Assembly (NCBI GenBank): GCA_965649765.1
Contig: OZ287757.1
Location: 30,504,001 to 30,568,000 of the forward strand
Direction: 5' to 3'
Source: Bispira polyomma
Taxonomy: Eukaryota
DNA length: 64,000 nt
Numbering within the stretch: the first letter of the stretch is position 1; every line of letters begins with the position of its first letter. Shown here one piece after another: positions 4,842 through 26,297 of the stretch. A program made the translations under genes and the position numbers. The notes beneath the pieces are model-generated. The model saw nothing but the letters and a program-made list of their open reading frames with translations, did no database searches and was not told the origin of the DNA.

Positions 4842-4847
4842 ACCCGG
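4842..4847 (+). repeat. Left target-site duplication ACCCGG
   Basis: Identical hexamer at 26553-26558; 6-bp TSDs are typical of Polinton integrases. Confidence 0.95.
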
Positions 4848-5102
4848 AGTAGTAGCGTATTGCAGGATTTGAGGTACCCCCCGGAGGAGTCGTGCCACCC
4901 CCATGATCATGATAAGCCCCCCCGAAGATCTTATAAACCACCCCAATGAGTAGAATCGTGATGAGCCCCCCTGAAGATCTTATAAACCACCCCAAAGAGT
5001 AGAATCGCATGCCAACACGCTGTTCACTCTAAAATAAACACCGGTAGAAGTTGAATGAGTACAAACAAGCACTCGAGTGCAGTCACTCTAAAATAAAGAC
5101 CA
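4848..5102 (+). repeat. Left terminal inverted repeat (255 bp)
   Basis: Reverse complement of 26298-26552, with one mismatch seen by eye (GAATCGCATG vs GAATCACATG). Contains two ~45-bp subrepeats with TATAAA. Confidence 0.96.
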
Positions 5103-5199
5103 AACCTGATCTTAGAAAGGATGTACAACAGAATCATCTACCAAATAAACACCAGTAGAAGTTGAATGAGTATAAACAAGCACTCGAGTGCAGTCATTC

Positions 5200-5451
5200 T
5201 AAAATAAAGACCAGACGAGTTATTTATACACAGTTCCCTGTTGTTTTTGTGTTTCAATACTATTTTAAAATCACAAATTGCTGATCCTCTAATTTCTACT
5301 GTCTTCTCTTCATCACTGTCGATTGTGTATTCAGCCATAGTTATTTTCAGTTAAAATCTCGGAGGATCACTTGGAAATAAATACTGAATAAAAGCACAAT
5401 TTCCTTTTGTGTGTCTTTTATGTTCGAAAAAGACGTCTTCAAAAGAATCCC
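5200..5451 (+). repeat. 252-bp direct copy of internal segment 25423-25674 (5' end of the PC4-like gene plus 3' end of the BIR gene)
   Basis: Near-identical sequence in the same orientation; explains ORF 5138-5338, which starts MAEYTIDSDEEK like 25010-25561. Confidence 0.95.
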
Positions 5452-5955
5452 TCAAAGCGGCCTTGTCTGATCTTAGAAAGGATGTACAACAGAATCATCT
5501 ACCAAATAAACTCCTGGTAAGTGGAGTAGCCTTGTCAGCAACTTTAAAAGGTAAAGCACCACCAAGGGTGTATTGGTTGCAATCCTTTTGAATAACCCCT
5601 ACAGGTTGAATTGGTGTTAAGGGGAAAAGATCTCAAAACAAATGGAATATCAAAGATCAGTTAAAATTCCTTTATATTACAAGATTACATGTTAAGATCT
5701 TTTAAAACACTAAAACAACTTATGTTTACGAACACATTTATTTCATGTACTACTACCCTTTAAATCGTTTGGTATTTCTAAGTAAAACTACACTTAGAAA
5801 TCTTAGACGTTCGAAAACACGATTAGATTTTTTCTTGTATAAATACAAACACATTAAACACTTAACACATAATTATACAAATTGTTGTAGAAGCGCACCA
5901 CAGAATAATCATTTCATTTTATTGGCTGGTTCTTAATTCTGAGGGAATTATTTTA

Positions 5956-6006
5956 TTGGTTGGATTTCCAATTGGTGTGTTTGTTAACAAGTTGTAGTTT
6001 ATAAAA
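5956..6006 (+). promoter_or_regulatory. Putative Pol II promoter (CCAAT-type motifs and TATAAAA) of the spliced PC4-like gene
   Basis: ATTGG/CCAAT at ~5956-5975, TATAAAA at 6000-6006, ATG at 6132; matching AATAAA at 8020-8025. Confidence 0.5.
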
Positions 6007-6131
6007 GAACCGGTTAGCTTAAATTATAAGCATCTGAAATAGGAATTTATTACAAATTGTGAGATAGTTTGGATAGATTTAGTGTTTGGATAAATTTTGT
6101 GTTTGGAAAACAACACCTTTTACGAAAAGAA

Positions 6132-7838
6132 ATGGCTTCAATGTAAGTACGACAAAGTTATTTTGTTTAAATTTATTTAATATATAAAATTAGTTATTGT
6201 GATATTATAATTAGAAAATTTAATACTTGAAACTTTATGAAAATGCAACGCAATTATAATATATATTTATATACTACACAACTATAATTTATTCACATCA
6301 ATCAAATTGATAAATACTTAAGTTTTTTTGTTTTTTTTTTGTAATAGAAGTCAAACTTCTTATAGTCGCAAGATTTTATTTATTTTGTCGAGTCACGGAA
6401 AAAACAAAAATGAATAAAAGCTGATTATATTTTTAAAAATTAAACAAGATTTGTATATATATTTATTTAGGAAGAGAAAAGCAGTAACAGAAGAGAAAGA
6501 GTTATTGACTAGGAAGACAAAGAAAACAAACAGGTAAATAACATTATACCCATTTTGTTATTTAGTAGAAATATGTGTAAATATAAGTACTAACAACACT
6601 ATAAAATACAACATATAAATATTTTCACCAAACCTACTAATTAAACTGTGAAAAAATTGTAGTTAAATTTGAGTTTTAGAGCTTCTTGCTGTGAAAACTT
6701 TAGGGAATATATATTATTTAATAATTTTACATAATTTTAAAGAAAAATAACTTTATCACTAAATTAATTTCCTAATTAGAAAACAAATTCTAAACTTTAA
6801 TAGGTATTTTATCATATTTATAATATTCGTATCTTTCTTTTTACAGTTCCTTGTTCAATGACGACATGAGTGATGAAGTTCACAGTGAGCAGGAAGACGG
6901 TAAAGAGGATTCGGACCTAGAGTGGGTGGAACCCTACACACCCCTTTAAACCACCCAAAATCCTAAAAAGTCTAAACAACCCTCAAAACCCCGAAAACCT
7001 AAAATTATTCTTGAATCCGGAGCCTCCAACGTGGTAACCGGCTATCAAGCTTTAGCCACAATGGCTCACGCCATCCAACCTCCAGCATGCAGTGTTGTCA
7101 ATAAACCTCTGCAGAAACAGATGTCTACAACAACAAGAGCAACAAACAACAATACAACCACAAAGTGAGTATATTTAACATCTTAATTATGTGTAATTTT
7201 CTTTAATGATGAAATAAGTAATTCATATTTTTTTGTGAGTATATTCATAATCATGTAGGAAGATAATTGAAAATAATCTTTGTATTTTGGTCTTATTCTA
7301 ATTATAGTTACACCTAATAAAGGAGGAAAGAAGTAAGTATATAAAATTTTGTGTTTTATTAACAACTAATCAATTTAGTTATATATTTTTGTTTTTTTCT
7401 TTTTGCTACAGTTATGCGTTTGTGGAAATCATCAATGATCACTTCACCATGAAAAAAGACACAGACGACGGTGAATACACCATCATGACAGAGTACAGAG
7501 ACAGTGGACTAAGGCTTTACCCCGAACATTGTGAGGGTGTACTCAGGAATTTGGATGTGCTTGTACAATCCGTAAATAGAGTCAAACAAGACCGTCGTGT
7601 GAACCTTAGGGTTGATATAGCAGACGACGGTCTTAAAGCTTGTGTAGATACCAACCACTCCTACATATCGTTTAGGAGGTTTGAGAAGTTGTTCAAAGGA
7701 GGGGATTACCCACTCCCTGGAAAAGGATTTGTAGTACAAAAAGATGAAATAGATGTTTTTGTACAAAACCTCAGAGACTTTTTACAAAATGTAGAAAAAA
7801 CAAAAACAAAACGTACATTTCACAGGAGAAGTGTTTAG
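6132..7838 (+). pseudogene. Four-exon gene (6132-6142, 6471-6533, 6847-7164, 7412-7838; 272 aa) with basic/acidic disordered N-terminus and C-terminal PC4-like ssDNA-binding fold; one in-frame TAA at 6947-6949
   Basis: Three GT-AG introns (donors gtaagt, gtaaat, gtgagt; pyrimidine-rich acceptors), all phase 2. Exons sum to 819 nt. C-terminus YISFRRF...PGKGFVVQKDEIDVF resembles PC4 IDIREY...PGRKGISLNPEQW. Confidence 0.75.
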
Positions 7839-8040
7839 AGACTGTTAGAATCACAATATTGAGAAGAGACTCTTTAGATGGACTTTCTTTAATATAAAAT
7901 TTAGAGTAAAAGAGACTGTTTAAATATTAAGCTAAAAGCGGATTGTTTAAAAGCTTTTAAATATACAAGTTGAGTATCCTTGTTATACTCAGAAATATCA
8001 TTTTATAATGTATTTAACAAATAAATAAATATGAAGATAC

Positions 8041-10154
8041 CTATAAATCAGTTTCATGACTTCCGTAACTCATATTTTCCAAGAAAATTGGTGATGTCTC
8101 CCTCCTATTTCGTTGTCTTTTGTGGTAACATTTGAAGAGACACAAAGTAACTCCAACACTAGTAAGGAATACCATGAAAGACAATCCAGTTGTCAAAGCT
8201 ATAACCCATTTATCTGTCAAAAGAGATATATTGACTGTTACATGTAACATATTATTGCAAGCTCTTACCGTAAAAGTTTGAATCATAAAAAAATTTGAAC
8301 ATTTTCGGTTATCCGAACGTTTTGTTTATTCGAACACTTTAAATATTTCTGGTTAACAGATCCCCAAAATGTTACATCAATCTTCAAATTTCAAAACTAA
8401 TTTGTACATCAAAACATTTTAGGTCAATCAAACATTTTGGTTTAACAACTCTCTAATGCTTGAAGAGACACAAACTTACTCCATCACTATTAAGGAATAC
8501 TACGAAATCCACTTGTTAAAGATCTAACCTATTTATCTGTCAAAACAGAGATGTATATGTCATATGTAAAATATCATTCCAAGGTCACATCATAAAAGTT
8601 AGAATCTTTTGGTTTTCCGAACGTTTTGTTTGACCTAAATTTTTCTCGGAGAACCGATATTCTATTCACAAAACTATGAAAATACATATACTAAAGCTTC
8701 TTTTAGGAACTTCAAAAGGCTTAACCTAATAAAATATTTGGTTAACAGGACAGTTCCAACATTCTATTCGTAAAACTATGAACTAAACAGAATATCTATA
8801 TTGAAGCTGTCTTTAGGAACTTTAACAGGCTTAACCTCATCAAATGTTCGGTTAGCCGAACAGTTTAATATTCTATTTTATAAAACTGCGAACTAAACAG
8901 AATACCTATACTGAGGCTTCTTTTAGGAACTTCATTGGGTGTGGAAGAACTTTTTGTAGAGCCATCCGTTATCAAAGTAAAGACAGAAGTGGTCATCTCA
9001 GTTGTTTTGGACGGTTCTAGAGTGCTTTGGTTTTCTAAAGACAAACACTTATCTTCATAATATTTACCTGCTTTTTATTGAAACACATTTATTGAAACAT
9101 ACATATACCGAACAAGTTCGGATAACCGAATATCCGAACATGTTCGGATAATCCGAAAGTTTGGTTAACCGAATATGTTCGGATAACCGGTTATCCGAAA
9201 TTCGGTTATCCGGAAATTTGATTATCCGAACATGTTCGGATATTCTATTCATAAAACTGCGTACTAAACAGAATACCCATACTGAAGCTTCCTCTAAGAA
9301 CTTAAAAACAAACAGTTATCTTCATAATCTTTATCTGTTTTATTGAAACAAACTCATAACTCAGTGTAATATAAGAAAATTAAGCGAAACTGGTAAAAGT
9401 CTTTCAACAAAAATTATTTCACTTTAAATTTGTTTAGTCACTATTTTTTAAAGATTTACCATGTTCAGTTGAAAGGTTAATGTCAGCAACTGTGGTTGTC
9501 CGAGATGGTTCTACACTTTCTACACTAAGTGATGTAGCAGACAAATCAGTTGTCTTGTCTACCGCACTGGTTGTAGCAGACAAACTGCTTGTCGCAGTCG
9601 ACAAACTAGTTGTTGTGAAAGCAGTCCCAACACTTGATATTTTACTGGTCAAGGCTTCGGTTGAAAGAACTTTTAAAAAGATTAAACAAAACATGCATAC
9701 AATCAATTATTATTCAATATACGTCAAATTTTAACGACAAGACAGAAAGACTTTTATCAATTCAAAACACTTGAATATTTCTATCATATGTACATATTTT
9801 GAAATGGGATTATTAAATGAATAAAAACCAACCTGCGCATCTACTTAATTCCAGTTTAACTTTCATTTGAGATTGTTTTTCATGAACAAGACTACAGTTA
9901 ATATTAACTGTCTGGTCACCCGAGAATAACTCCAAATTCTTGAATTTATCCAGGAAATCCAATTTTGTTACAAAGGAATTAGTAATAAAGAAGTATAACA
10001 ACTTCTCTGGATGAACCACACTAACATCAGGCTCACCAAAAATGTTCAAGCAATTGATTTGCCTTTCAAAACAGAAACATTTGTCATCTTTGAAGCAGTC
10101 ATTACTACAAACTTTTGCAATTAGCAACAACAGAAAAAACACGGAGACATACAT
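8041..10154 (-). CDS. Four-exon type I membrane glycoprotein (10154-9833, 9669-9460, 9034-8906, 8213-8041; 277 aa): signal peptide, LRRNT-like Cys cap, Ser/Thr mucin stalk, TM helix, short tail ending ETDL
   Basis: Three GT-AG introns, all phase 1; the spliced frame is open for 834 nt. It joins ORF-track fragments 9813-10154, 9434-9706 and 8041-8286 plus an unlisted 129-nt exon (ENQSTLEPSKTTEMTTSV...). Confidence 0.8.
9105..9243. repeat. Cluster of short palindromic repeats (TATCCGAACATGTTCGGATA and variants) in intron 2 of the membrane-protein gene
   Basis: Perfect 20-bp palindromes at 9131-9150 and 9223-9242, with degenerate CCGAA/TTCGG units between them. Confidence 0.85.
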
Positions 10155-11476
10155 AGTTGCAAAAATCGTTTTGAATGTGTAATACTTTTAGCTGTTCTGT
10201 TCAACTGAATTTCTAAGGAAGACTGACTCAACTTAGATATTTTTTGTTTTTTCTAGATTTTGGTTAGTAGTGTTTATATTGGCTTGAAGAAAATTTATTA
10301 CACACAATTGCAAAGGAGGGTATGTGTATTTGTGTGTGACTATGCCAACCAAAAAGAGAAAAAACCATTTCCGTGTAAACGATAGACATAAATCAAATAA
10401 ACCAACCTAAAGAAAATAACAAGTTTCGTTACATCTGAAAACCATAAGCACATTTTTTTTTTTTCCTTAGCTTCATACTCTCCTAATGCTACACATAAAT
10501 CAAATAAAGAGAGCTAAAGAAATAACCAGTTTCTTTACATCTGAAAACCATAAAAAAAATTTTCTTGCCTATTAACGTTTATCAAGTCTTTGTTAGATAA
10601 ACGTTAATTATACTAATATAAAGGCTACATCATGAACTATCTGTTATTTCTTTTGGATTTACAAACTATCAAAGTTGATTTATACTGAAAATTAATTCAA
10701 ATGCATAAAGACAGATTTTCTTCACTTCTCCATAAATAGAGTTCATTGAGTTAACTAGGCGTGTATGTTTGTTCTTTAGCTTAAATATTTTAGGGGATAT
10801 TAACCTTGTATCTGATAACAGTTTGAGGTTTATGATACACACTAGTGGATGATTGTATAGCTCTATCCTAGCTCCCCGGGTGCTCTGTGTATGTGTGTGT
10901 ATGGTAAACGTCTGCTTTATTATCTTATAGGTCAAAACCCATATGGGGAGTTGAGATGTGTGTAGGTGTAGTGCAAACATACCACTGCCTGTATACCTTC
11001 AATAAGTAGCTGGCTTCTATACATCATATATATGTGTGTTGTGAGTGAGTGTGTGTGGTATATGTATGTATTTGTTTTGGAGTGGAGATCAGACAATACT
11101 TCTTCACTATTTTCACTTTTTGGTGAAGTATAGAAGACTTTGACTTGTTTAAAGCAAATTATAGTATTACATATATGTGAAAGTGTTTGATTTCTTTTTA
11201 ACCAATTTGTTGATAATGTGAACTGTGTGTGTTTGATATTAGAACACATGGAGATTATACATATGACTGATTCTACTTCTTACATTTCAAAGGATTTGTG
11301 ATTAGTGTCAGTTTGGGAATACATGAAATAAAGGATTACATTCAAAGATAAACTGCAAAAGTAAGTGTATATTTTTGTTATTAAAACTATGTAAAATAAT
11401 CAACTTATTGTTTTGCAAAATAATTTAAAAGACCGCTTGTATCTGAAAAGTCTGTAATAACCAATTTACTTTCCAG

Positions 11477-11626
11477 ATGGCAGAGAATTACGCTAATCTT
11501 ACTACTGTTGAAAGACAAGAACTTAGAGCTCAACCAAATGTAGATATGATACAGCAATGGGCTAAGACAAGATCCATCAACAATCACCCTGAGGTTCTTG
11601 AAAAGATCATTGAAAAATATGAAGAT
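11477..11626 (+). CDS. Putative first coding exon (50 aa, MAENYANL...EKYED) of the PolB polyprotein
   Basis: Preceded by acceptor tttccag directly before the ATG. Ends at a phase-0 donor (GAT|gtaagt) that matches the phase-0 acceptor ttgttccag|TTA at 14302/14303. An upstream non-coding donor gtaagt sits at 11361. Confidence 0.65.
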
Positions 11627-11937
11627 GTAAGTAACTATCTTTGCTTTTATTTCAAATTTAACATTTATGTGTTTTAGTTGTATTGTTTGATTTTAGTGAA
11701 CTCTCTAAATTACTGATTTATTATCTTAAATTGCACAAAGTATTCACATTAAATTTAGGAAAATGATAACTTCTTGAATCAAAACTTCTTGAAATTTAGG
11801 AAAATTCTAAGTACAGAATTAAAAAAATCACAAATTCTTTAATCAAAACTTCTTGAAATTTAAGAAAATTACAAGTACAGAATTAAAAAAATCTTCAAAT
11901 CACCAACTTAAATAAATTTGAATATACACCTTAGTGT

Positions 11938-12590
11938 ATGGAGATTCATACTCAGTCTAATTAGTCTTTACATACTCAGCCTAATTAATCTTTAAAAGAA
12001 AATTGTTAATTACTAGGAAACTGTCCATATCCAAGAAAAATGTAAAAGCTTACATTGAAAACACAAAAAATCTCAAAAATTCTGTTAAATTAAAATTTAC
12101 AGTGGATAAAAAATTCCCCGGTGTAATTCGTTTTTGAAATAAACTTTCAAAGGAATTACACCTCGGAATTTTATCTCGGAAAGAAACATGCTCATCCACT
12201 TGATAATATTTCAGATTAGTGGCTTCTACTATTCAATTTAGTTGTCAGTCTGTTTGACATGGAGATTCATACTCAGTCTAATTAGTCTTTACATACTCAG
12301 TCTAATTAGTCTTTAAAAGAAAATTGTTAATTACTAGGAAAATGTTAGAGAAACTGTCCATATCCAAGAAAAATGTAAAAGCTTACATTGAAAACACAAA
12401 AAATCTCAAAAATTCTGTTAAATTAAAATTTACAGTGGATAAAAAATTCCTCGGTGTAATTCATTTTTGAAATAAACTTTCAAAGGAATTACACCTCGGA
12501 ATTTTATCTCGGAAAGAAACATGCTCATCCACTTGATAATATTTCAGATTAGTGGGCTTTCTACTGTTCAATTTAGTTGTCAGTCTGTTT
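11938..12590. repeat. Tandem duplication of ~320-335 bp
   Basis: ATGGAGATTCATACTCAGTCTAATTAG at 11938 and 12259, each followed by near-identical sequence to GTTGTCAGTCTGTTTGAC. Confidence 0.9.
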
Positions 12591-12954
12591 GACGGCATCG
12601 TAAGGTTATTAGCTTCACTGTCTGTAGTAGTAGTAGTAGTGGTAGTCTTCTTCATCTTTAAACTGAAAATATAAAAAAAGAATAAATAATTACTTTTAAA
12701 ATATCCAAATTTTAGATAAGTTATTTTACAATAACAAACTTCTTTTTCGAGTCTATTATGTTGGAAAATGTTAACTGATAAATATGTAAACTCCTGGAGA
12801 AAGCTAAAGTTGATTATATTTACTTAACACTTACACCCATGCCAAATTGACCAAATATAGGAAGGTGAAGTATCAGTTAAACTTTAAAGTATGAGTTAAA
12901 ATTTAACATTCCTGTTAATAAGTCATATTTAGCATCAGTAATTTATTCATACTT

Positions 12955-14097
12955 TTAAACCACTGACCACTCTTCATGGTTAACGGCGTCTCTTGAAGTT
13001 ATACTTTCAAAGGGTTGTAGTACTTCTCGGTTCTTGGTTGTCGGTTTTGTTATTGGTCTTGAAGTGTTGTACTGAGCTGGTGTTCTTAACTCTGGTACGA
13101 TGGATACTCGGGCAGGTTCATCGGAATTAAACAAAACGGATCTCCTCGCTCGCATTCGAGCTTGGATTCTACCAATCCTGAAATGAAATAATAAAACAAA
13201 TATTTACTGGTGTTCTTAACTCGGGTATGATAGATACTAGGGCAGGTTCATCGGAATCAAACAAAAGAGATCTCCTCGCTCGCATTCAAGCTTGGATTCT
13301 ACCAATCCTGAAATGAAATAATAAAACAAATATTTACTGGTGTTCTTAACTCGGGTACGATAGATACTAGGGCTGGTTCATCGGAATCAAACAAAAGAGA
13401 TCTCCTCGCTCGCATTCAAGCTTGGATTCCACCAATCCAGAAATGAAATAATAAAACAAATATTTACTTAGAATTGTTTACGCAAATTCTATCAATCAGA
13501 ATATAAAATAATGAAACAAGTAACTACTTATGGTTATTGTGTGAAATATTACCTCTCTTCGTCTCGTCCTGTAGTGTAATGCCCCTTCCAACACAGAAGA
13601 TTACGCGTTTTCACATACTTCAGAGTCCTTCGAGTTCCTTCTATGATCAAACCTATGTATGTTAGAACGGCTATAGCAATAATAATCCAATTTGGTATGT
13701 TTATTTCATTAGAAATATCGATATCTGAATTAACCAAACTGTCGTCTTTGTTTTCCGTAGAGTCGTTATTTGTGTTATGTTTGCTGTCAACCGAATCGTC
13801 TTGGCAACCGCCTATCATTTCTATATGGGTATAGTCGGGACAGTTTAATGTAACACTATCCACAAATCTCACACTTTGTAAGTTCGGAAAAGCAAATAAA
13901 ACTTTTTTTACATCCACAATAGAGTCTGTGAACACGGCAGTTAAATATCTGACTGAGATAGAGAAAACCGTTCTTGAGTCTATGTTTTCACATTTTATAC
14001 TCGCTAAATCACACCCACAACCCGTGGGGCAATTCAACACTCCCATCACAACACAGCTTATAAACAACAAAACATAAATATTCCTTTGGAAAACCAT
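12955..14097 (-). CDS. Spliced type I membrane protein (exons 14097-13553 and 13177-12955; 255 aa): signal peptide, LRRNT-like cap, acidic stalk, TM helix, long cytoplasmic tail
   Basis: CPTGCGCDLASIKC cap; TM WIIIAIAVLTYIGLII; phase-2 donor GAG AG|gtaat joins acceptor catttcag|G ATT GGT in frame with ORF 12955-13155. Confidence 0.75.
13076..13468. repeat. Three tandem 130-bp copies of an intron-end/exon-start unit
   Basis: Acceptor positions at 13178, 13308 and 13438 (the last mutated CAG>CTG). The two distal copies carry a CGA>TGA stop. Confidence 0.9.
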
Positions 14098-14302
14098 CGT
14101 TAAACTAGATAAAATCAGTATATTGTTTTTATTTTTCCTCTAAACTTTTCTGCATAAACAGATCAAATTTACCTCCAAAATGTTTCACTCTAAAAGTTTT
14201 CTGCGTTTACTTTAACCGTTTAATAAAACAGTTTTGCGAAAAGTTAGGTGATTATTGAAATTGTTTGTCTGATTTTTGTTGTTTTATTTTTCATTGTTCC
14301 AG

Positions 14303-17300
14303 TTAAGACAGCACAAGAGAACTGAGACAATTCCAGGAAAAGAAAAAGCTATTGATACTTGCAACACGCTAGTTGAGGATCTGAAAGCAAAGAAAGTGTC
14401 AAAACAAGAGTGGTCCTGCAAAAAGTGTGGGATAAAGTTTCAACAACTACAAAAATGGATAAAACATAGAAAGAGTTGTGAAGGATTATTGTGTACTCCT
14501 AAACTGAAAATTCAGTGTGTTAATTGCAAAAAATTCTTTTCTCAAAAGTCGAATCTAAAAAGACATCAGCTAAAATGTGACCTTACAGATGGTAAAGAGC
14601 CTACCTTTAAATGTGTGAAATGTACGAAGGTGTATATATTGAAATCTAATTATTTGAAACATCTAAAGAGTTGTGGGTTTTTAAATTCTCTCACTACAAA
14701 AAAAGTTTGTTGTAGTATTTGCAAGGAAAAATTTTTCAGTAGTAAGGATTTATACTCCCATAGATTAAATCAACACGGTGGTGGAGAGCAAAATATTGAC
14801 GATACTGGTAATTCAGACAGATTTCAGTTAAATTCTCCGCCTTGGTTGAATGAAGCTGGTGAAAATATAAATCCAGAGTTAGAAAAAATTTATAAAACAA
14901 ATGAATCACACATATTCGCTCCTCACCAAACAGATAGTGTTGTGAAAAAATATAATTTTCCTACTGAAAATTTGAAAGGAGGGGTTGAAGAAATTATGAA
15001 ACATATAGAAAAAATATTTCAAAATCAAAACTGAGGATTCAAAATTAATATTAATTTAGATTTTATTCTGAAGAACAAGAAATCAGGTAAATACAGATAT
15101 TACATTCCTTATGCTAGTTCTTATCTATTTCCGAAACCTTACATCATTTCCAGACATACCAATTTGAGAGTTTTGAAAAACAAACTCAAGAAATTAAACC
15201 CCAGTGAATATATTTTGAATAACAGACCCAACAGTCGGTATATTCCAGAATATATAACCAATATAAATTTTGATGTGAGCTTAATGGATTACGTATTAGG
15301 TAATCCTTCAGACTTCCCAGAATTTGTGAAAAACTGTAGAAGCGTTTTTACATTTTTAAAGCCTCCAAAAACAGGAAAAACATACACTGACAATATGTGT
15401 ATTTTTCGTTGTCTTGCATTTCACGAGATAAAAAATAGAAAGAGTTTAGACACTTTAACTAGAAGTAAGTTTTTTGAATGGCTTGATTATAAATCTTACA
15501 AAGAACCAAAACGTTTTAAAGGGGTGACATTAGAAGATATTCCCGATTTAGAAAACTGTTTTCAAATCAATATTTCTGTTTTCCAGCTTTTAGAAAATTC
15601 ATGTGTAATCACACATTATAATTCTAGAGGAACTTTTGACAAATCCATAGATTTAGATATGCAAAATCATCATCTATCATATGTCAATAATTTGAGCTTG
15701 TACGCCAAAAAGTATCAATGTCAAGCATAATGTTTTTCAAGAACTTGAAAAGTATAACATTTTTGTCTCAGTAGAAGACAGATTTTGTCCTTATTTTATC
15801 ACTTTTGACTTTGAGTCAATTCTTCAAAAGAAAAGTCAAGTCAAAACTCAGAAGTAACAAAATTAATGTGGAGAGAAAAACACATTCCAATATCAGTCGG
15901 TGTAGGGTCTAATGTTGAAAATTTTGAGGAAGGAAAATGTTTTGTAGATTTTAATATGGATAAATTATTAGCAAAAATGGTTGAATATATGGAACAGATT
16001 TCAAACAAAGTCAAGACCTTACAAATGTTTAAATACCATTCATGCTTTCAAGAACTAGATAGACTTTTAAATGAGTTACAATCACTTGAAACACAAAAAG
16101 ACATTGAACAAAATAGTGAAAATTTTGGAAGTGAAGAAGATGAAGTTCCTTCTGTTTCGTTTCAAAAAAGATTCAAAAAGCACAACTGTTTCGACAAAGC
16201 TATTGATAATTTAATAAAAACTAATAATCTTCAAGTAGAATACAATAATTATAGTGATGTCAGTGAATCTGAAGACGATATTTTTGAGAATGAAGAACAA
16301 GAGAATTTCCTTGAAAATATCTTTCATGAAAAACCTCAAGCTTGTGAAGAAAACATAGCTCACAAATTGTGCTCTAGAACTCGTTTCTTAAAAACTGTGA
16401 GAAAAAAAATCCAAACTTTGAAAGAGAGACTAGAATCTTATTGTGAATGCACACCAGTCTTAGGCTTTAATTCTTCAAATTATGATCTTAATTTAGTCAA
16501 ATCTAAACTGTGTAAACATTTGAAACTTGATGATACACAGAACAATTCTTTTACAGTGAAAAGAAATAATGCTTATTTAGTTATAGCAACCAATACTTTG
16601 AAATTTTTAGATATCAGTCATTATATAGCCCCTGGATTTTCTTACTCTCAATTTTTAAAAAGTTATAATGTAACAGAGCAAAAAGGATACTTTTGTTATC
16701 AATATCTCTCAAAACCCGAAGTTCTTGAAGAAACAAATTTACCTCCTTATGAAGCCTTTTACAGTGATTTGAAATCTTGTAATGTTTTAGAACGTGACTT
16801 GTTAGATTGGTATAAAACAAACAACATACAGTTAGTACAGCAAGATTTAGAATTCAACTCGTATGATAATCCCTCTAAATATGTGAATTCATCTATTTCT
16901 TATTTAAATTTGACAACTGAAAAATGTTTAAAACTTTGTTGTTTGTGTGAAAAGATCCAATGTGTGTGTAATAGTAGACCTCTTACTGGTTTTGATAATT
17001 ATTTAGATTTATTAAAAATTTGGAAAGTGAATGATATGAAATCAGTTGAAGATTTATTAGTCTGGTATAATTTGAAAGATATCAACCCCTTTACAGAAGC
17101 AGTTGAAAATTTACAAAAGTATTACAAAGAAAATAATATTGATCTTTTTAAAGATACAATTTCAGTGCCTGGAGTAGCTAGACAAATGCTATTTAAATCA
17201 AAAGATGCTAATTTTCAGTTATTTGATCGTCAAAATGCAGACCTTTACAGAAAAATAAAGCAATCCATTTGTGGGGGTCCTTCTATAGTGTTTACAAGAG

Positions 17301-19592
17301 CAATGAAAGAAGGACAGAAATTAAGGGGAGGTCATACAAAATGCGAAACTATCGTCGGCTATGACGCGAATAGTCTTTATCCAACCTCGTTACAAAATAA
17401 TATGCCCTGTGGAACTGTAGTAAGGAGACATGAAAGCACTGGTTATAAACCAGAAGTTCAAACAAAATATTTAGACATGTTTATTTGGATGGATCGGGTA
17501 TCAGAACTGAGACAGATAAAAATTTTACACAGATTAAATAGTGGGAAAGAACATTATGTGATGGGTTTCAGAGTTGATGGTGTATTTGGTAATGAAATAT
17601 TTGAATTTTTAGGAGATTATTTTCATGCTTGTCCTAAATGCACTAACAAATTAAAGTGTAACAAACCAAAATCTTGGTTAGTTAAACAAGAACAAAGATA
17701 CCAGAGAACTATTCTAAGAAAAGAATATTTAGAAAGTTTAGGATATACTGTAAATGAAATTTGGGAGTGTGAATATAAAGAAAAGTTTAAAAATTGTGTT
17801 CAACACATTCAAGAAAGATATTTACCCAAATATTACAGTTCTCATAAAAACGGGTTGTCATTAACAAAAGTATTAAAAGACATTAAAAACGGTGAATTAT
17901 TTGGTTGTGCCAAAGTTGATATTGAGACTCCTTCTAAATGGACTGAAGATTTTGTTCAGTCAATCTCACCTCAGGAATATTACTCTGAATTTAGCCCTAT
18001 ATTTTGCACCACTGACGTACCTATGAGTGTTATTGGTGAACATATGACAAATCACATTCAAAATAATGATTTATCTATGGAGAGTAGGCGATTATTAGTA
18101 GGCGGGTTGAAAGCAAATAAGATTATGCTTGCTACACCTTTACTACAATGGTATTTAAAACACGGAATTTTAATAACTAGAATTTATGAAGTCGTAGAGT
18201 TTTCACCCATACCTTGTTTCGCTCAATTTGTTTCTGACGTCACAGAAAGTCATAGGATCGGAGACAAATCTCCTCATTTAGCTTTAATAGGGCAAACTGC
18301 AAAACTTTTGAATAATTCCGCTTATGGATCATGTCTTATGAATAAGGAAAACTTTATGAACATCAAATATGTGAAAGGTGACTCCAGCGAAAATTGAAAT
18401 AAATAAACCAGAATTTCGAAAAGCTACTTTGTTAGATGAAAGATACTATGAGATAGAAGCAGCCAAACGCAGAATTTGTTTAGATGTACCAATTCAAATA
18501 GGGTTCTTTATTTTAAATTATGCAAAATTACGTATGTTAGAATTTTACTATGATAATTTGTGTGAATACATTCATAGAAATAGATTTGAGTGTATACAAA
18601 TGGACACTGATAGTGTGTATTTTGCAATAGCTGGAAAGTCTCTTGAAGACGTAGTTTACAAGCATAAAAAACATGAATTTCAAAGAAAAATCAAAAATAA
18701 TTGTGGTGATTTTGAATTAAAAGCTGATAAAGACCACTATTTCCCCCGAGATTGCTGTACTAAGCATAAACAATACGATTTAAGAACACCGGGACTTTTC
18801 AAAAAAGAAAGTTCGGGAAAAGAAATGATTGCTTTATGTTCTAAAACATATGTACTAGCTGAAGAAATTGGATTCAAACTCTCCTGTAAAGGTGTTAATA
18901 AGAAATCGGTTAAAGATCCTGTCAAAATATTTCAAGACGTTTTGATAACACAAAATGTCCAAACAGCTTTAAATAAAGGTTTTAGAGCTAAAGACAATTC
19001 GATGTTTACATATTCTCAAGAAAGAATAGGTTTTAATTATTTTTACTGTAAACGCAGAGTTTGTGATGACGGAATACACACAGTACCTTTAGATTTGGTT
19101 TTGTCACCGTGGCCAAATTATGAAAGGCATGTGTTTTTCAGAGATTTTACTAACCCTTTATGTATTTCTTACAAATTTCCTTGTAGATATAATGAGAGAA
19201 CATTTGAATCAATAGAACATTTTATGTATTTTGCTTTTGCTCGTTTTCACAAAGAAAAATCTATTGCACTTTTAATTCAAAAATCATTCCACAAAACCAA
19301 AATTCTACAATTACTGAAGAATATAAAGATAAGTTTTATTTGGTTTGATAAACTGAGAGAGCTTTTACAACTGAGTCTAAAGGAAAAATATGAACATTGC
19401 AATTTGTTTAGACAAGCACTTGATAATATTTTGTTTCAAGAAATTATCTTTGCTGACAAGGATAAGTATTTAGGTTGTGGAATGGAATGTAGAATAGCCG
19501 AACTAACCGATAGTGCAAAATACCCTGGTCAAAATGTACTGGGCGAACTGTTGATAGAGTTAAAAAATACAAAAAACACACACAATGTTTAG
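14303..19592 (+). pseudogene. polB: Protein-primed family B DNA polymerase polyprotein (zinc fingers, terminal-protein region, vOTU-like protease, exonuclease, polymerase with VSR-like insertion, C-terminal NADAR-like domain); disrupted
   Basis: Motifs FDFES (~15800), GFNSSNYD, GGPSIVF, YDANSLYP, KLLNNSAYG, MDTDS, TPGLFK. In-frame TGA at 15032-15034; frame breaks at ~15730, ~15855 and ~18380. Confidence 0.95.
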
Positions 19593-19957
19593 ATATTTCT
19601 TTATTTATTTATTTATTTATATGTACATACAGTGATTTCAATTATTTATTTATACAGTAGACTATTTATTTTGTACATATGTCTATAATGTTTATAACTA
19701 TTTTGTATATAGCTTTACAGTGTTATGTACATACTAGGAATATAATAAAATATATGAATCTAAACTCTGTGTTTATAAAAGAGGTCACTCAGTTGATCTT
19801 TGTAGGGTGTACATTACCCTAATGGGCTTACACAACTATTAAAGATTCACCTATACACTACTAAACTGTGTTGTTTAATCAGCTACTTCTCCTATAAACC
19901 TCTATAAAGGGCTTAAGTTATTTAACTGATTGTAAAGAACGCACTTTCATATGAACC

Positions 19958-20401
19958 TTAACCTGTGTGTTTATAAAAGAGATAAACCAACTGATCATTG
20001 TACAACAAATCTTTTGAAAACATATTTAAAATGTTTGACATGGAAAAACCTCTAACTCTAAAATAACAAAAAAACAAACAATATTGACCACACAAATTTG
20101 AAACATAGCTTTGACACCTCTTGACATTGAATTTGTACTTATGGCTTTGTAAGCTCATATAAGACTTTAAATAGAGATCTGGAAATTTACCAATAGGATC
20201 AAAATATTCAGTGACTTCATCATTGTGATTGTAAAGCACAACCCAATGACTTCCTGCTTTCTCACTTGTGTCTAGATTGACTATGTAAAATCTAGGTTTT
20301 TTTGATTGTAAAGGTAATAAATCCTTTGGTAAGACTCCTCCATAACTTTCTGAAATGTAGGGGTCCTTTAACATATACCGCTCCAATTGAAATGTATTCA
20401 T
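19958..20401 (-). CDS. Adenain-like (C5 family) cysteine maturation protease
   Basis: IVNLD...GSHWV, EYFDPIG and Q...SNLCGQYC give the His/Asp/Gln/Cys catalytic set; adjacent to the MCP. Confidence 0.95.
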   Translation of the reverse strand: MNTFQLERYMLKDPYISESYGGVLPKDLLPLQSKKPRFYIVNLDTSEKAGSHWVVLYNHNDEVTEYFDPIGKFPDLYLKSYMSLQSHKYKFNVKRCQSYVSNLCGQYCLFFCYFRVRGFSMSNILNMFSKDLLYNDQLVYLFYKHTG

Positions 20402-21678
20402 TATTGAATTTTGATATTTCTAGCTTTATCAACCAATACCATTCCTGGAAAAATTGAATAAGCAATCACCATTAAAGATGTACTAGTGGCAGAACCGAAC
20501 TTGAGCTGTAACCTTGTGTGTCCTTTTTTAAGTTTTCCCATTAACTCATTGTCTGTTTCTCCTTGAATGTCAAAAACGAAAAGACCATACCCATTTGAAT
20601 AATCAGCTCTACTAATAAAATTTCCAGCGTGGTGTGGGTATTTATTTGAGAATAAAGTAAGGTATGACGAGACATAATCTCCTGTTGAAAAATTAGGTGT
20701 TAGAGCTTGCTGAGGTACACTTTGTCCATCTACACTTAGTTCTAAGTAATTAACACTCTCATTAACAAAATTGTAAGGGTTTAATAAAAAATCACCAGTG
20801 TATGCGTCTGTTTTTACAATACCTAAGATAAGTTTTGAGGGTACTTCACCATGGAAAATATCATCTGATGAAAAGGTGCTTACACCTTGAGGAATAACAA
20901 AAGTTTTTATGTTGGATTTCCAAATAGGGTAAAGAGCTGGAGCGTATGTTAAAGCTTCATTATGAGCTAAGATTATAGAATCACTGACTTTCACATGACA
21001 AGCTTTAAAAACAGCTTCTGTTATTGTTACTTTGTAAGCTTCTAAATCTCTTGTCATCATTACAAATTTATCAGAAGAAGGGAATAATTTAATTATTATT
21101 TTAACCCCGTTTAAAATTGGTCTTTCTTGCTGAGATATATCCATATGAATAGGTTCTTCTAAAGTGACTTCTTTACCGGAAGCTGTAAAAGATGTCCTAG
21201 CTGTCAAACCAGGGTTATTTCCAGGTGGGGTTGCATCCATAACGCCTGAATCCTTGTAATATAATTCACTTTGAAGTTGAGATTCTTTTACTTCCATTCC
21301 GTATTTTAAAAGCACATCAAAAATTGATTTATAAGGGTAGTTTACTCCTACATCCGGAGAAACAACTTTATCTTGAAGCATGACGTCGACTTGACGAAAA
21401 AGAGAGTGTAAACTTAAATTTACTAAACCCACCGCATTATCTGCTGCAATCGGAGTTCCATCCGATTTAAGAATTTTTGCTTTTATTTTTAATCGGGATT
21501 TATTTAAATCAATATATTCAGCACTGGTGCCTGGTATTCGAAATTCTATAGTAGAACCATGTGAAATAGTAGAAGTGGATTGGAATTCTATATATTGGAT
21601 TTCATCTACAGCCGCTTCTACATAAGGAGCTTGAAAAAGTGCTAATTTAGACGAATAAGACAGTTCCTGATCACTCAT
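20401..21678 (-). CDS. Major capsid protein (double jelly-roll; Polinton PY / 'hexon')
   Basis: Intact 425 aa with Polinton MCP hallmarks (IEFRIPG...EYIDL, LHSLFRQVDV, YPYKS, ESQLQSELYYKD, NPYNF, GYGLFVFD). Confidence 0.93.
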   Translation of the reverse strand: MSDQELSYSSKLALFQAPYVEAAVDEIQYIEFQSTSTISHGSTIEFRIPGTSAEYIDLNKSRLKIKAKILKSDGTPIAADNAVGLVNLSLHSLFRQVDVMLQDKVVSPDVGVNYPYKSIFDVLLKYGMEVKESQLQSELYYKDSGVMDATPPGNNPGLTARTSFTASGKEVTLEEPIHMDISQQERPILNGVKIIIKLFPSSDKFVMMTRDLEAYKVTITEAVFKACHVKVSDSIILAHNEALTYAPALYPIWKSNIKTFVIPQGVSTFSSDDIFHGEVPSKLILGIVKTDAYTGDFLLNPYNFVNESVNYLELSVDGQSVPQQALTPNFSTGDYVSSYLTLFSNKYPHHAGNFISRADYSNGYGLFVFDIQGETDNELMGKLKKGHTRLQLKFGSATSTSLMVIAYSIFPGMVLVDKARNIKIQ

Positions 21679-22021
21679 TTTGTTTGTTTTTTAGAAATTC
21701 TTTTCTTTTTAATTTTAGAAGACTTCTTTTTCGAAGAAGTTTTAGTAACACTCTTTCCTTTCTTTCGTCGTTTATTTGATTTCTTTTCCTTTTTAAGACT
21801 GAGTTAATAATTTGATATTCTTTGGTTTAAATACACCGGCTTCTTTGAGCTTCCTCTTTAAATCAGATTTGGCTTGAGCCACTACAGCCTGTGTGGGCGT
21901 TATCATTTTAATTTCACCGCTTCCTACTTGAGGTTTAAATACATAAATTCTTCGTTGATATGGAATATTTCCATTAGCCATGTCTGTAAAATGTTTGGTC
22001 CAATAATTATTATCAGTCATT
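21675..22021 (-). CDS. Small basic virion core/protamine-like protein candidate with QVGSG protease-site motif; Lys/Arg-rich tail interrupted near 21793
   Basis: MTDNNYWTKHF...PQVGSG...; sequence at 21680-21790 encodes a K/R/S-rich run beyond the called stop; located between penton and MCP. Confidence 0.5.
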
Positions 22022-22022
22022 T

Positions 22023-22424
22023 CTATGGAATTTTTCTTCTTAAACCTAATGTACAAGTAGTTGTCTTAATTGGGTCTGTTGGAAATTTCCCTGTAACAGT
22101 GTCTTTTATGTATATTCTAACACGATCTACAGGAATTACAGTAATAGGTTTAAAATAGAATTTATTAAATTCCAGGTTTTTTGTTGTAAAAACACGTCTC
22201 AATACTGGGGCCATAGAATCTTTAATATAGCTATATTCAACTATATCACAATATATATAAACTTCGTTTTGTAGAGTATTATCCCAAGATATATCTAACA
22301 AACTACATTCCCAAGTTTTGTTGAATTCAAATGCTTTAGGTAAATCAACAATAAAATCATACCAGAGATTTTTAGGGTATTCTTTGAGAGAATCCGATGA
22401 AGATAAATATAGGTATTGCATCAT
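22023..22424 (-). CDS. Minor capsid protein (single jelly-roll penton; Polinton PX), very compact at 133 aa
   Basis: N-terminal YLYLSSSDS..YPKN..YDF.VDLP...WECSLLDI and C-terminal YIYCDIVE...PVLR...RVRIYIKD signature. Confidence 0.88.
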   Translation of the reverse strand: MMQYLYLSSSDSLKEYPKNLWYDFIVDLPKAFEFNKTWECSLLDISWDNTLQNEVYIYCDIVEYSYIKDSMAPVLRRVFTTKNLEFNKFYFKPITVIPVDRVRIYIKDTVTGKFPTDPIKTTTCTLGLRRKIP

Positions 22425-23554
22425 GAAAATTTTTTTATTTCATTTTCATCTATCCAAGTATCAAATTTAGGTCCCCAACCTTTCCAACGAACAAGTAGGC
22501 TTATTTTACCTTTAATTTTTTTTTCTGAACTATCTTTTCTATATCATACTGAGTGTCTTGACTTACATTAACCTTTTGAAGTTCAGAGGTAGAAAACTTA
22601 TCAATTATAGGCTCGTTATGGAAATCTTTTACTTCATATTTCTGAATACCTTGATTTAAGTCTCTTGTGGATATAATGAATAATTCGTCAGTCCATTTTT
22701 GATCTGATTCTTTGTTATAGACACTTTGTAGTTTTCTCAAGCGAACAATATCACCTATTTTGAACTTGTATAAAGGGGTATTTCTTTGTGATTTAGGTAA
22801 AGTGGTTTTTTTTCTTGAATTTGAGTATTTTAGGTAGTTTTTTTTCATACTGGATTTTCCATAAAATAGGGTTTGCAACTTCAAGAGCTTCTTTAGGAGA
22901 CATATTAATTGTACTATGATATGTTTTATTATAACTATCAGTTAAGTTTTGTAAAACATCAATCCATTTCCTAGTTTTGTTATATTCCATATATCTAGCT
23001 ATTTTCATTTTTAAGGTACGAATAACTCGTTCCGCATAATTAGCTTTGGAGTGTTCTGAAGTTACAATGTGTTTCACATTATTTTCTTTGATGAATTTAT
23101 CACCTAATCCTAAGTACTCTGTCCCACGGTCGCTTCTCAGGACTAATGGTTTGTTTTCTTTAAAAACAAGTTTCAACGCATCCACCATTTCTTTTGAAGT
23201 CAATGTTTTAAGTGGTACCGTGTACAAATAATGAGATAAAATATCTATAAACACGGCTATGTATTTGTAACCTTCGTTTTGTGAAGCAAACTTTTCATAA
23301 TGGGCTGTATCTGTGTCTTGCATATAGCCCTTAAAGGGTACTATAACTTTTGGTCTCTTGAATTTTCTGATAACTTTCCTATATAGAGTGTAGCTATTTT
23401 GTTTACTTAACCAATTTTGAATAAATCCTTTAGAAATATCAGACCTTTCCTTTTTAACTAAATTATAAAACTTTTGTAACCCTGCAAACGAACTTGGGTT
23501 TTATGGATTAAAATACATTTTTTGCAGATAATCTTCTTTCTCAGAATCACCCAT
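22421..23554 (-). pseudogene. Retroviral-like (rve) integrase with C-terminal chromodomain; disrupted
   Basis: Starts MGDSEKEDYLQKMYFNP*NPSSFAG (stop at 23501-23503). DDE residues in QDTD, SDRGTE and AERVIRTLK. Frameshifts near A-runs at ~22840 and ~22520. Ends LVRWKGWGPKFDTWIDE. Confidence 0.95.
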
Positions 23555-23560
23555 ATTGCT

Positions 23561-23839
23561 TCAGTAATTAGTCCAACTATTCTTCCAATTGTTTTTGTTT
23601 AAGGGTTTTGTTTCAGTTAAAAGTCTGTTTGTGTTTGGTTTTCCAGGTGGAGGTGGAGATAGCGGTTCAATTGTGGATTTATTTAAATCTTTTGTTTCAG
23701 AATGTTGAGAAATTTCACTGTGTATGTTTTCATTCTGCGTGTCTTCAATTTCAGTTTTCAAGTCTTTGTTTAAACTACCTTCGTTTTTTGATAATAAACG
23801 AGTATATTTATCATGAGGTATAAGAACCATTTTTTTCAT
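23561..23839 (-). CDS. Small Polinton hypothetical protein (KKMVLIP N-terminus, Pro-rich, Trp-containing C-terminus)
   Basis: Intact ORF, ATGA-overlapping the upstream ORF, in the usual slot between ATPase and integrase. Confidence 0.65.
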   Translation of the reverse strand: MKKMVLIPHDKYTRLLSKNEGSLNKDLKTEIEDTQNENIHSEISQHSETKDLNKSTIEPLSPPPPGKPNTNRLLTETKPLNKNNWKNSWTNY

Positions 23840-24159
23840 TTTATTAACGTTAACAGCTGCTTTTTAAACTCAGCCAAAAGTTTCAAAATACTCAGTTTAC
23901 GCAAAGAAATGAATTTCTGTTTTTTAATGGTTTTAATATTTCTGCTGGCTAATTTTTTCAATAACGCCTTCTTCTTGTTAACAATGTTTCTATATTTAGT
24001 TGATAATGGAATATTCAACAAATTATGACTTATTTCACTTATAACATTAACTTGTTCAGGAGAAATTGTATCTAACAAAGCTTTTGTTTGGTTAATAGGT
24101 GAAGTTAACACTAAAATAATATATTCTTTATGTTTTCTAACATAAGAAACCATTGTCAC
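23836..24159 (-). CDS. Small basic Polinton hypothetical protein
   Basis: Intact 107 aa; KALL...ISEISHNLLNIPLS pattern resembles small ORFs commonly found downstream of Polinton ATPases. Confidence 0.7.
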   Translation of the reverse strand: MTMVSYVRKHKEYIILVLTSPINQTKALLDTISPEQVNVISEISHNLLNIPLSTKYRNIVNKKKALLKKLASRNIKTIKKQKFISLRKLSILKLLAEFKKQLLTLIK

Positions 24160-24203
24160 TCATAATCCCCTAAGTCAACACTGAATAAAACTTCAAAACA
24201 CTG

Positions 24204-24800
24204 TCATTGATATACTATTATAGGTAATTCAGTTGGAAAAATATTAGTTCTTAATCTGTAAGCTTCGTTACTTTTAGGGGATAAATCAAGAATCAAATAA
24301 CCGTAGGGATTTGTGAGAGCGTCAATATAAGCTTGTTTCAACAAACTTTTCATACCTATTTGTTGTGATAAAATATTTACTTGTTGAAGATTTCTGGGGT
24401 TCTTTAACAAAACGGTATAAGCTGTATTCAAAGTAAGAGTTCTGGAACATTTACCTTGATAAAACAAATTTTGATTTATGTAAATAACTGTAATATTGTT
24501 GTGGTGACTTATTTGGGTAAATAACTTTTCAGCTTCTTTGCTGTTGGCTACTTCGTGTTGAAGGTCATCTAAGCATATTATATTATGATTTGAGTCAAAT
24601 ATAGTTCTTATTTTTTCCAAATTTGGCAAACCTTCCACAAATTCTATGTTTAAATTTTTTTCTATGTCATCAAATATAGGCTGCCAAACAGAATAACAAT
24701 AAAGAATTTTTGTAGGTGGATTTTCAAACATAATATCTTTTGCTTTTAACAATTTATACAACCAAGTAGTTTTACCACTACCAGTCATTCCTGATATCAT
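24204..24800 (-). CDS. A32/FtsK-like genome packaging ATPase
   Basis: Walker A GMTGSGKT, Walker B ICLDDLQ, SHHNNITVIYINQNLF, PYGYLILDL, RLRTNIFP. The frame extends upstream (EVVKFECPSTW) to an ATA at ~24836 that may be a mutated start. Confidence 0.95.
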   Translation of the reverse strand: MISGMTGSGKTTWLYKLLKAKDIMFENPPTKILYCYSVWQPIFDDIEKNLNIEFVEGLPNLEKIRTIFDSNHNIICLDDLQHEVANSKEAEKLFTQISHHNNITVIYINQNLFYQGKCSRTLTLNTAYTVLLKNPRNLQQVNILSQQIGMKSLLKQAYIDALTNPYGYLILDLSPKSNEAYRLRTNIFPTELPIIVYQ

Positions 24801-25009
24801 CCATGTTGAAGGACACTCAAATTTAACAACTTCTATGTTAACACGTGTAAACCAAAATAATTAATGAAGAGAATTACTTTATTAGGAAATAATATATATA
24901 TAACTATAAACATACAAAACCAAAACTACGATATTCATTTAATCAAGTATTTATACAAACTAAAATCACACAAATCATACCAAGGAAAAGTCTGAGCGTA
25001 TTTTAAAGT

Positions 25010-25561
25010 TTATAAACTATTCACTGTTCTTTGGTGTTCTTTATCCCAGTCTTCTGATTCGTTTTCCTTGACTTCTGAATCTTGTTCTTCTCCATCAGGC
25101 TGAGAACATAGAGGACATGAGAAAAAATCTTCTTGGTTTTGATGTGTATAGAAAATCTGGGGGTGATCTTTTTCGATTTGATTAAAAATATCCAATAACC
25201 TAAACCACTGAACGTATTTCAAAGATATACCATCCAATGTTGCTAGTTGTTGACCTCCAAATTTGAAGAATCTACGAATTTGTATACATTGAAATGGAGA
25301 CTGTAAATAAACAAAAACATCGTTTTCAAGACAAACATAAAAATTTGTTGGTTCTTTTTTATGACATAACCTAATGAGTTTGCTTGATAATTGTTCTTTA
25401 CTTTTTATCAAGTTAAAATATTTAAAATAAAGACCAGACGAGTTATTTATACACAGTTCCCTGTTGTTTTTGTGTTTCAACACTATTTTAAAATCACAAA
25501 TTGCTGATCCTCTAATTTCTACTGTCTTCTCTTCATCACTGTCGATTGTGTAGTCAGCCAT
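25010..25561 (-). CDS. PC4-like ssDNA-binding/transcription cofactor protein with CPLC motif and acidic tail
   Basis: CIQIRRFF...LATLDGISLKYVQWFRL closely parallels the PC4 consensus IDIREY...KGISLNPEQWSQL. Confidence 0.7.
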   Translation of the reverse strand: MADYTIDSDEEKTVEIRGSAICDFKIVLKHKNNRELCINNSSGLYFKYFNLIKSKEQLSSKLIRLCHKKEPTNFYVCLENDVFVYLQSPFQCIQIRRFFKFGGQQLATLDGISLKYVQWFRLLDIFNQIEKDHPQIFYTHQNQEDFFSCPLCSQPDGEEQDSEVKENESEDWDKEHQRTVNSL

Positions 25562-25573
25562 AGTTATTTTCAG

Positions 25574-26017
25574 TTAAAATCTCGGAGGATCACTTGGAAA
25601 TAAATACTGAATAAAAGCACAATTTCCTTTTGTGTGTCTTTTATGTTCGAAAAAGACGTCTTCAAAAGAATCCCATTGATGTAAAATCACCTTACACCAT
25701 GCGCATTTACAGCTGTCTCCTATTCCTGTGTAAAGAAATCCAGCTTTAGCTAATTGTTCAGGACGGACTGGGTGACATTTAGGCCATGTCTTAAAAGTTT
25801 CAATTCTCTTGTCATATTTATAAAAATATTCTTTCCCAAAGGAAAATTCTGGGCATGTATCCCTTTGACCTCCTAAAAATATAGAAGATCCTCTGCTTTC
25901 TTTCTCCCAACAAGATTTAGAAGAAGAAGCTGGTGTACAGAGTGAAAATCCACTGGTAACAGCTTTATTACAAAATAACCCGTCGCTGGTTGAGTCTGAA
26001 ACGTCTGTTCTTTCCAT
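25574..26017 (-). CDS. Single-BIR inhibitor-of-apoptosis-like protein (no RING)
   Basis: RIETFKTWP...LAKAGFLYTGIGDSCKCAWC...W......EHKRH...CAFI is a complete CCHC BIR signature. Confidence 0.95.
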   Translation of the reverse strand: MERTDVSDSTSDGLFCNKAVTSGFSLCTPASSSKSCWEKESRGSSIFLGGQRDTCPEFSFGKEYFYKYDKRIETFKTWPKCHPVRPEQLAKAGFLYTGIGDSCKCAWCKVILHQWDSFEDVFFEHKRHTKGNCAFIQYLFPSDPPRF

Positions 26018-26037
26018 GATTCTGTAAATTTATCAAT

Positions 26038-26075
<38 letters not shown>

Positions 26076-26297
26076 ATTAGAAACAAGCACAAAAAAAAAA
26101 AAATCCTAAGTATATTATTGGTTAGTTTTTAACCAATTAAATTATAGCAATTATAATTATATAATAAAATTTATTATATTCAAAATGTTGATTTTGATGC
26201 GTGATTCATTAAACCTAAATAAAGGAAAATACATATCTCAATAGACTAAAATCCTTGGGTTGCTTGTTTGTACTCATTCAACCTTTACATCTTTGTC

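Follow-up and report, generated by a model that had tools for sequence, protein, structure and literature searches.

We analyzed a 64,000-nucleotide (nt) stretch of the Bispira polyomma genome (contig OZ287757.1, positions 30,504,001 to 30,568,000), hereafter called the window, which carries a 21.7-kb Polinton/Maverick element with a polB gene. Comparison of this copy with its relatives suggests that one clade of these elements makes its polB polyprotein from a spliced mRNA, in which a remote, conserved leader exon would be joined to the zinc-finger/polB exon over a nested antisense gene, and we put the probability of this reading at about 0.88. The feature itself is real and of long standing, and it is very likely that the splice occurs. 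A remote leader spliced over an antisense gene had been proposed in an initial annotation of the window, and the comparative evidence described below supports it well.

Leader exon and splice signals

The leader exon (11477..11626, plus strand) is an open exon of 150 nt that begins with ATG at 11477-11479 and ends at a GTAAGT donor at 11627. Judging from substitution rates, genomic matches, homologues and a structural model, it would supply the start codon together with a 50-amino-acid (aa) predicted three-helix domain of no known family. A polypyrimidine tract followed by CAG at 14300-14302 forms the acceptor, and both donor and acceptor are in phase 0 relative to the zinc-finger frame. The predicted GT-AG intron between them (11627..14302, plus strand), to which both the signals and their conservation point, is 2,676 nt long, and all of these coordinates are as they had first been given. 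No in-frame ATG lies between the upstream stop and the polB acceptor in the window, and the first in-frame Met of the zinc-finger frame comes 232 codons past the acceptor. The initial statement that polB has no ATG near its start thus holds for the window; it does not hold for 16 of 31 near copies and for two families considered below.

Directly before the ATG exon there is another acceptor (CAG, 11474-11476), with a GTAAGT donor at 11361; the two would delimit a 116-nt intron in the 5' untranslated region (5'UTR; 11361..11476, plus strand) ending directly at the start codon. Because of these two sites, which the initial annotation had missed, the ATG exon is probably the second exon. An AAA/gtaagt donor was present upstream of the leader in 6 of 14 representative copies, and in two subfamilies that keep the signals of the main intron the donor and acceptor of the 5'UTR intron have decayed jointly. 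A model of the leader peptide showed three helices with a predicted local distance difference test (pLDDT) score of 80, and no convincing match to it was found in Pfam, in the PDB, in Foldseek searches of the PDB or among viral folds.

The main polB exon (14303..19592, plus strand) is broken in the window by stops at 15032-15034 and 15728-15730 and by a frame change near 18375-18397. It encodes C2H2 zinc fingers, a polymerase with a weak nuclease-like insertion and NADAR, as identified by Pfam (zf-C2H2, NADAR and, at E 0.003, the insertion as MTES_1575) and by 22 polB relatives at E<=1e-10, four of which carry a precomputed PF03175. The window polB is 51% identical to one relative, P0030, over 854 aa and gave no match to PF03175 itself. 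The labels terminal protein and OTU-like, given to 15035-15727, are tentative; they follow the position of this part, its motifs and the architecture in PMC11071308.

Conservation of the leader and alternative readings

The host is an animal with a genome of 1.04 Gb. A DNA search of this genome for near copies gave at least 44 matches (40 of 91 candidates scored), and in all 37 loci fetched the order leader, antisense membrane gene, polB was kept. The mappable set consisted of 37 sequences, namely 36 loci and the window, one fetched locus with an insertion in the exon being left out. Here the exon was 150 nt long in 33/37, ATG and the GT donor were each present in 35/37, and an AG acceptor, accepted if it was the closest AG no more than 8 nt from the aligned position, was present in 37/37; an in-frame ATG upstream of the acceptor was found in none of the 37. 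The ratio of nonsynonymous to synonymous substitution rates (dN/dS) of the leader was 0.09-0.23 in the ATG frame (10 pairs among five copies) and 0.57-2.8 in the two other plus frames, which contained stops. The 150-nt exon is coding and is under purifying selection. In a five-copy alignment it was the best-conserved part of the region, and 11627 was the only strong donor common to all five copies; the read-through beyond this donor was conserved neither in length nor in sequence. Reads of three runs of unknown kind covered all 30 bins of one near copy in a DNA-like manner with no GT-AG joint, a result that says nothing on expression.

The initial annotation had suggested a search for the same leader in related elements, and this search was productive. 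With the 50-aa peptide as the query, at least 150 matches were scored of 161 candidates in the genome, down to 46% protein identity. No intronless leader-polB copy occurred among the 150 scored matches, where the longest open frame was 141 aa. Forty distant loci were picked from the 150 for diversity, and 28 of them had a donor at exactly +150. An acceptor candidate was found in 26 of the 34 distant loci with a zinc-finger match, and the best candidate was in phase 0 in 22 of these 26; in one family the in-frame stop is itself the acceptor. Among 13 representatives the acceptor lay 3-39 codons ahead of the first CxxC and the intron measured 1,426-3,076 nt. Seen from the other side, 120 of 137 polB matches of at least 54% identity were preceded on their own strand by a leader at a distance of 0.5-12 kb, and the divergences of leader and polB covaried (Spearman 0.59; 27 of 5000 permutations).

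Several observations weigh against a spliced polB with this leader. The copies share ancestry, and the counts therefore measure conservation rather than independent trials. In the five-way DNA alignment the polB acceptors of the copies did not fall into a single column. A donor at +150 was missing from 12 of the 40 distant loci, shifted in four and not found in eight, although five of these eight are one deletion-derived family in which the donor went together with most of polB, a single event that speaks for the spliced leader. Four of the 26 best acceptors were in phase 1, three of them in visibly broken copies and one, in L200, unexplained, and no acceptor candidate was found in the other 8 of the 34 loci with a zinc-finger match. 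Among the 137 related polB matches, 17 had no leader match nearby. A more distant family (L226, L228 and L229) keeps this gene order and has a polB acceptor followed by no Met, yet a leader was not found within 7.5 kb upstream. Outside this genome, fused-form searches, which were weak, gave no fused leader-polB protein, and none of 19 hits to a leader profile was fused to a zinc finger. L211-L214 and L216, and also L062, are defective derivatives with internal inversions; the L211 group, from which the leader donor and most of polB are gone, nevertheless has many copies and resembles a non-autonomous family.

A further point against the spliced leader is that an in-frame Met lies between the acceptor and the first CxxC in 16 of the 31 near copies whose frame is open to that motif and in 5 of the 13 representatives, so that leaderless initiation is possible in such copies. 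polB might then start at an internal Met a short way into the exon, with one promoter driving both polB and the divergent membrane gene; in that case the acceptor would serve a non-coding leader, and the 50-aa exon would be a separate small gene. In line with this, two distant families begin the main polB exon with ATG, the linker from the acceptor to the first zinc finger is poorly conserved, and the ATG of the membrane gene in the window is only about 200 nt from the acceptor. However, an in-frame Met is absent in 8/13 representatives, including families with only 3-5 codons from acceptor to CxxC, and the 50-aa exon has no conserved stop, ends at a donor, and is matched in phase by the acceptor. 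We consider this reading very unlikely.

The leader also has relatives beyond this genome. A profile of 12 leaders searched against 1.84 billion proteins gave the 19 hits just mentioned, of which one was a spurious repeat protein, two broke off early and 16 reached the end of the domain. In all 16 the likeness stops at the last residue of the domain and is followed by Val and an unrelated tail, as would be expected where gene prediction runs past a phase-0 GT donor without recognizing it. One call, P0104 (96 aa), consists of two tandem copies of the leader domain and also ends in Val. polB calls from other assemblies were 51-55% identical, and the N-termini of two of them, P0048 and P0050, are rich in Phe and Cys, like a translated polypyrimidine tract, with Gln just ahead of the first zinc finger. 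The leader seemed to resemble P0008 at its N-terminus, but this similarity was not significant and was dropped.

These outside homologues are all known as stand-alone calls, which raises a different possibility: the 50-aa exon may be joined to a nearer terminal exon or be polyadenylated within the intron, giving a small stand-alone protein, and polB may use another first exon, either further upstream or an ATG-only micro-exon. Plus-strand AATAAA motifs and weaker acceptors do occur inside the intron. Moreover, two outgroup loci, L218 and L222, seem to use an ATG-only exon, with a donor adjoining the ATG and some 280 nt from there to the acceptor, and L226, L228 and L229 have no first exon that we could find. 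On the other side, no plus-strand intronic acceptor recurs across families, the stretch from leader to polB has no further conserved donor on the plus strand, and a gene caller blind to splicing would give just such calls, whose tails are unconserved. We regard a stand-alone peptide as very unlikely. That the signals are chance matches in the AT-rich DNA of a decayed element is scarcely credible: the window copy is broken and its DNA is about 30% GC, but the coding constraint, the exon length and donor fixed at 46-100% protein identity, and the Val in 16/16 outside homologues refute this reading.

We made some further observations on individual loci. Read in the orientation of polB, L218:6470-6745 and L222:6480-6748 hold a BIR gene directly upstream of polB, followed by the possible start-codon-only exon, which is nearer in size to the adenovirus exon discussed below. 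A BIR-coding first exon was rejected for this family, the BIR frame having its own stop. At L220:1923-2798 (polB-oriented) an intronless frame that may be flank or cargo lies about 4 kb upstream of polB; its product may resemble an actin capping protein subunit.

Returning to the spliced leader, its distribution is narrow. The leader was found in 0/13 more distant polB matches of the same genome, and in none of 80 metagenome loci, and viral contigs gave no relative. When 28 metagenome polB loci were inspected, a Met of their own ahead of the first CxxC was seen in 20 and was absent in two, and the other six are cut or broken. By these comparisons, the remote 50-aa leader is confined to a single clade.

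The nested antisense gene and a proposed mechanism

A minus-strand gene had been placed whole within the intron, and we found the same: three coding exons separated by introns of phases 2/2 run from 14097 to 12461. Exon 1 (14097-13553, minus strand) would encode a signal peptide, a Cys-rich ectodomain and one membrane span, and it had no Pfam match; exon 2 (13177-12968, minus strand) follows; exon 3 (12662-12461, minus strand) would encode a cytoplasmic tail with a conserved Tyr/Ser motif and contains the stop. Because the three exons and the stop all lie within 11627-14302, the gene is wholly nested. Its product is predicted to be a single-pass membrane protein with a Cys-rich ectodomain. The gene was found in 37/37 near loci and in 39/40 distant loci. 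In the window, the acceptor region of exon 2 is triplicated (130-nt repeats, 13077-13466) and the 3' part of exon 3 is duplicated as repeats of about 330 nt.

A conserved minus-strand AATAAA lies 20 nt inside the leader donor (11646..11651). The motif was present 9-42 nt inside the donor in 13/13 representative copies, compared with 0-12% of other 60-nt windows of the intron, and it is likely the poly(A) signal of the nested gene. An argument against this is that it persists in L210, which is without the nested gene; for this reason the motif could instead be a U-rich splicing element. If it is a poly(A) signal, the antisense RNA would cover the intron and end at the donor, since the motif sits just inside it. 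A 10-nt motif occurring twice in each terminal repeat (5024-5033, 5083-5092) was also seen once internally, at 14185-14194, between the start of the nested gene and the polB acceptor, and it is a possible promoter element.

The mechanism that we propose is as follows. A promoter upstream of about 11300 would drive the transcript, from which the short 5'UTR intron would be removed. The 150-nt exon would contribute the start codon and its 50-aa helical domain and be joined in phase 0 to the zinc-finger exon by the host spliceosome, giving a product in the order leader domain, zinc fingers, terminal protein, OTU-like protease, polymerase, NADAR. On the other strand, the transcript of the membrane gene would span the intron and stop right at the leader donor, and such an end may shield the leader from read-through or couple the two genes. 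Transcriptional interference between the strands is possible; for the mutually exclusive sense and antisense transcription raised in the initial annotation, the conserved antisense AATAAA beside the donor is at most an indirect hint. The purpose of the arrangement is most likely genome compaction together with the gain of an extra N-terminal interaction domain, and a role of the leader in interaction or localization is a guess.

Known systems and the element setting

The initial annotation had compared this layout with that of adenovirus and called it parallel or ancestral. As far as the layout goes, the parallel is real. In human adenovirus 37 (HAdV-37), according to the accessible text of PMC2397415, the pTP mRNA draws on a 9-nt exon some 3.3 kb upstream, and the 52/55K and pIIIa genes lie in between on the opposite strand; a table in the same source lists the polymerase as unspliced, whereas the accessible part of PMC11304566 gives the pTP and Pol mRNAs 5' exons in common. 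As in adenovirus E2B, a start codon would lie in a small distant exon and an intron of about 3 kb would cross opposite-strand genes, the splice here being inferred; a looser similarity to the E2A DBP is that the strand of polB carries, further upstream, a gene for a predicted single-strand binder. The adenovirus DBP fold differs from the PUR/PC4-like fold predicted for this upstream protein.

The differences are also clear. The 9-nt exon of E2B serves two acceptors, for separate pTP and Pol, whereas here the exon has 50 codons (150 nt) with a predicted folded domain and one conserved acceptor, and relatives have a single long frame; a shared three-codon exon with alternative acceptors is thus not what these elements have. 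The nested gene is an accessory membrane protein here, not a virion gene, and no sequence or fold likeness to adenovirus was found. The ancestral part of the claim is not supported, given the Met-initiated metagenome loci, the absence of the leader from the 80 metagenome loci and the 13 more distant matches, and a leader that is a 50-aa helical domain instead of three residues. Because it is restricted to one clade, the layout is best read as convergent with that of adenovirus E2B.

A more far-reaching interpretation of the same sequences is doubtful, though worth stating. The clade may have evolved an independent adenovirus-E2-like replication unit, in which one strand carries the single-strand-binding gene and the remote leader, and splicing passes over accessory membrane-protein genes of the opposite strand. 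The nested transcript ending at the leader donor might then act as a switch between a host-modulating membrane protein and the polymerase, and the 50-aa domain might be a new regulatory module of the terminal-protein/polymerase precursor.

Among Polintons, the accessible text of PMC8097293 reports no introns in intact vertebrate Mavericks, and that of 10.1101/2022.07.12.499685 restricts introns to cargo genes and describes the core genes as intronless. The elements studied here depart from this, because a conserved donor, acceptor and phase surround polB, as far as DNA can tell. They resemble Polintons/Mavericks, the Beta-type adintoviruses (PMC8502044) and the mollusc-type pPolB2 with a VSR insertion (10.1101/2023.08.22.554363), as these are described in the accessible parts of the sources, in their terminal inverted repeats, 6-bp duplication, integrase, ATPase, protease and polB polyprotein. 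The lack of a PF03175 match and the weak nuclease-like insertion would fit the Beta/pPolB2 side. What sets them apart from these relatives is the predicted split of the core polB gene, its additional N-terminal domain and the antisense gene nested within it. The accessible text of PMC8502044, 10.1101/2023.08.22.554363 and PMC11071308 treats polB classes and domains and does not mention exons, and the corresponding parts of PMC12220804, PMC6431247, PMC8363768 and 10.1101/2024.03.25.586562 contain no relevant statement. Dinoflagellate Polinton-like elements likewise carry spliceosomal introns, introner introns that are mostly young and were gained after integration (10.1101/2025.03.18.643946, accessible text); in contrast, the intron here is of old date, keeps its position and phase from copy to copy, and has a gene inside it. 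In the openly accessible main texts covered, no spliced Polinton polB or nested gene was described.

Routine annotation treats Polintons as sets of intronless open reading frames and decides on that basis whether a copy is intact or dead. If core genes are spliced, the polB N-termini of this clade have been mis-called, a conserved domain has been missed and active elements may have been overlooked. A spliced core gene would also mean that the expression cycle is nuclear and dependent on the host spliceosome, and the exon junction would be a marker separating true transcription from DNA contamination, so that the timing of animal Polinton expression would become testable by one reverse transcription PCR. 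The layout suggests that adenovirus-like overlapping spliced organization can arise inside Polintons.

The 21.7-kb element (4848..26552, no strand assigned) is a Polinton/Maverick, present as a broken copy. Its terminal inverted repeats are 258 nt each with 99% complementarity, the termini are AGT-repeat ends (AG...CT), and a 6-bp target duplication flanks it at 4842-4847 and 26553-26558; it encodes an integrase, a packaging P-loop ATPase, an adenovirus-type protease, a BIR protein, zinc fingers and NADAR. A Pfam scan of the window gave rve at E 2e-8, P-loop families at E 8e-5 and Peptidase_C5 at E 0.0016, below its cut-off. Frames of 429 aa and 138 aa in the expected place had no Pfam match, and their labels are tentative.

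Upstream of the leader lie two further genes. A second membrane-protein gene (9813..10187, minus strand) resembles the nested one. A multi-exon gene (6470..7838, plus strand), recognized from splice-like signals and the predicted fold of its last exon, has four exons and 140 matches in the genome. The last exon has a PUR/PC4-like predicted fold (model pLDDT 89), for which the best Foldseek match was PURA (E 0.012-0.04, TM 0.5-0.6) with none at E<=0.001, and PC4 was assigned by Pfam in 1/15 members of the family. From this model the gene is a possible single-strand-binding partner of polB.

The ATPase frame (24204-25010, minus strand) likewise lacks a Met ahead of the first motif, and sites resembling an acceptor and a donor come before it, for which reason a second core gene may be spliced; a first exon for this frame was not found. 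A 252-nt stretch occurs near both element ends (5200-5451 and 25423-25674) in the same orientation with 99% identity, and duplicates the last part of the BIR gene along with the beginning of the gene after it. Beyond the element, at 41174-57590, a 3.78-kb unit that contains short exon-like repeats occurs about four times in tandem in near-identical form; this is probably a host multi-exon gene with duplicated exons.

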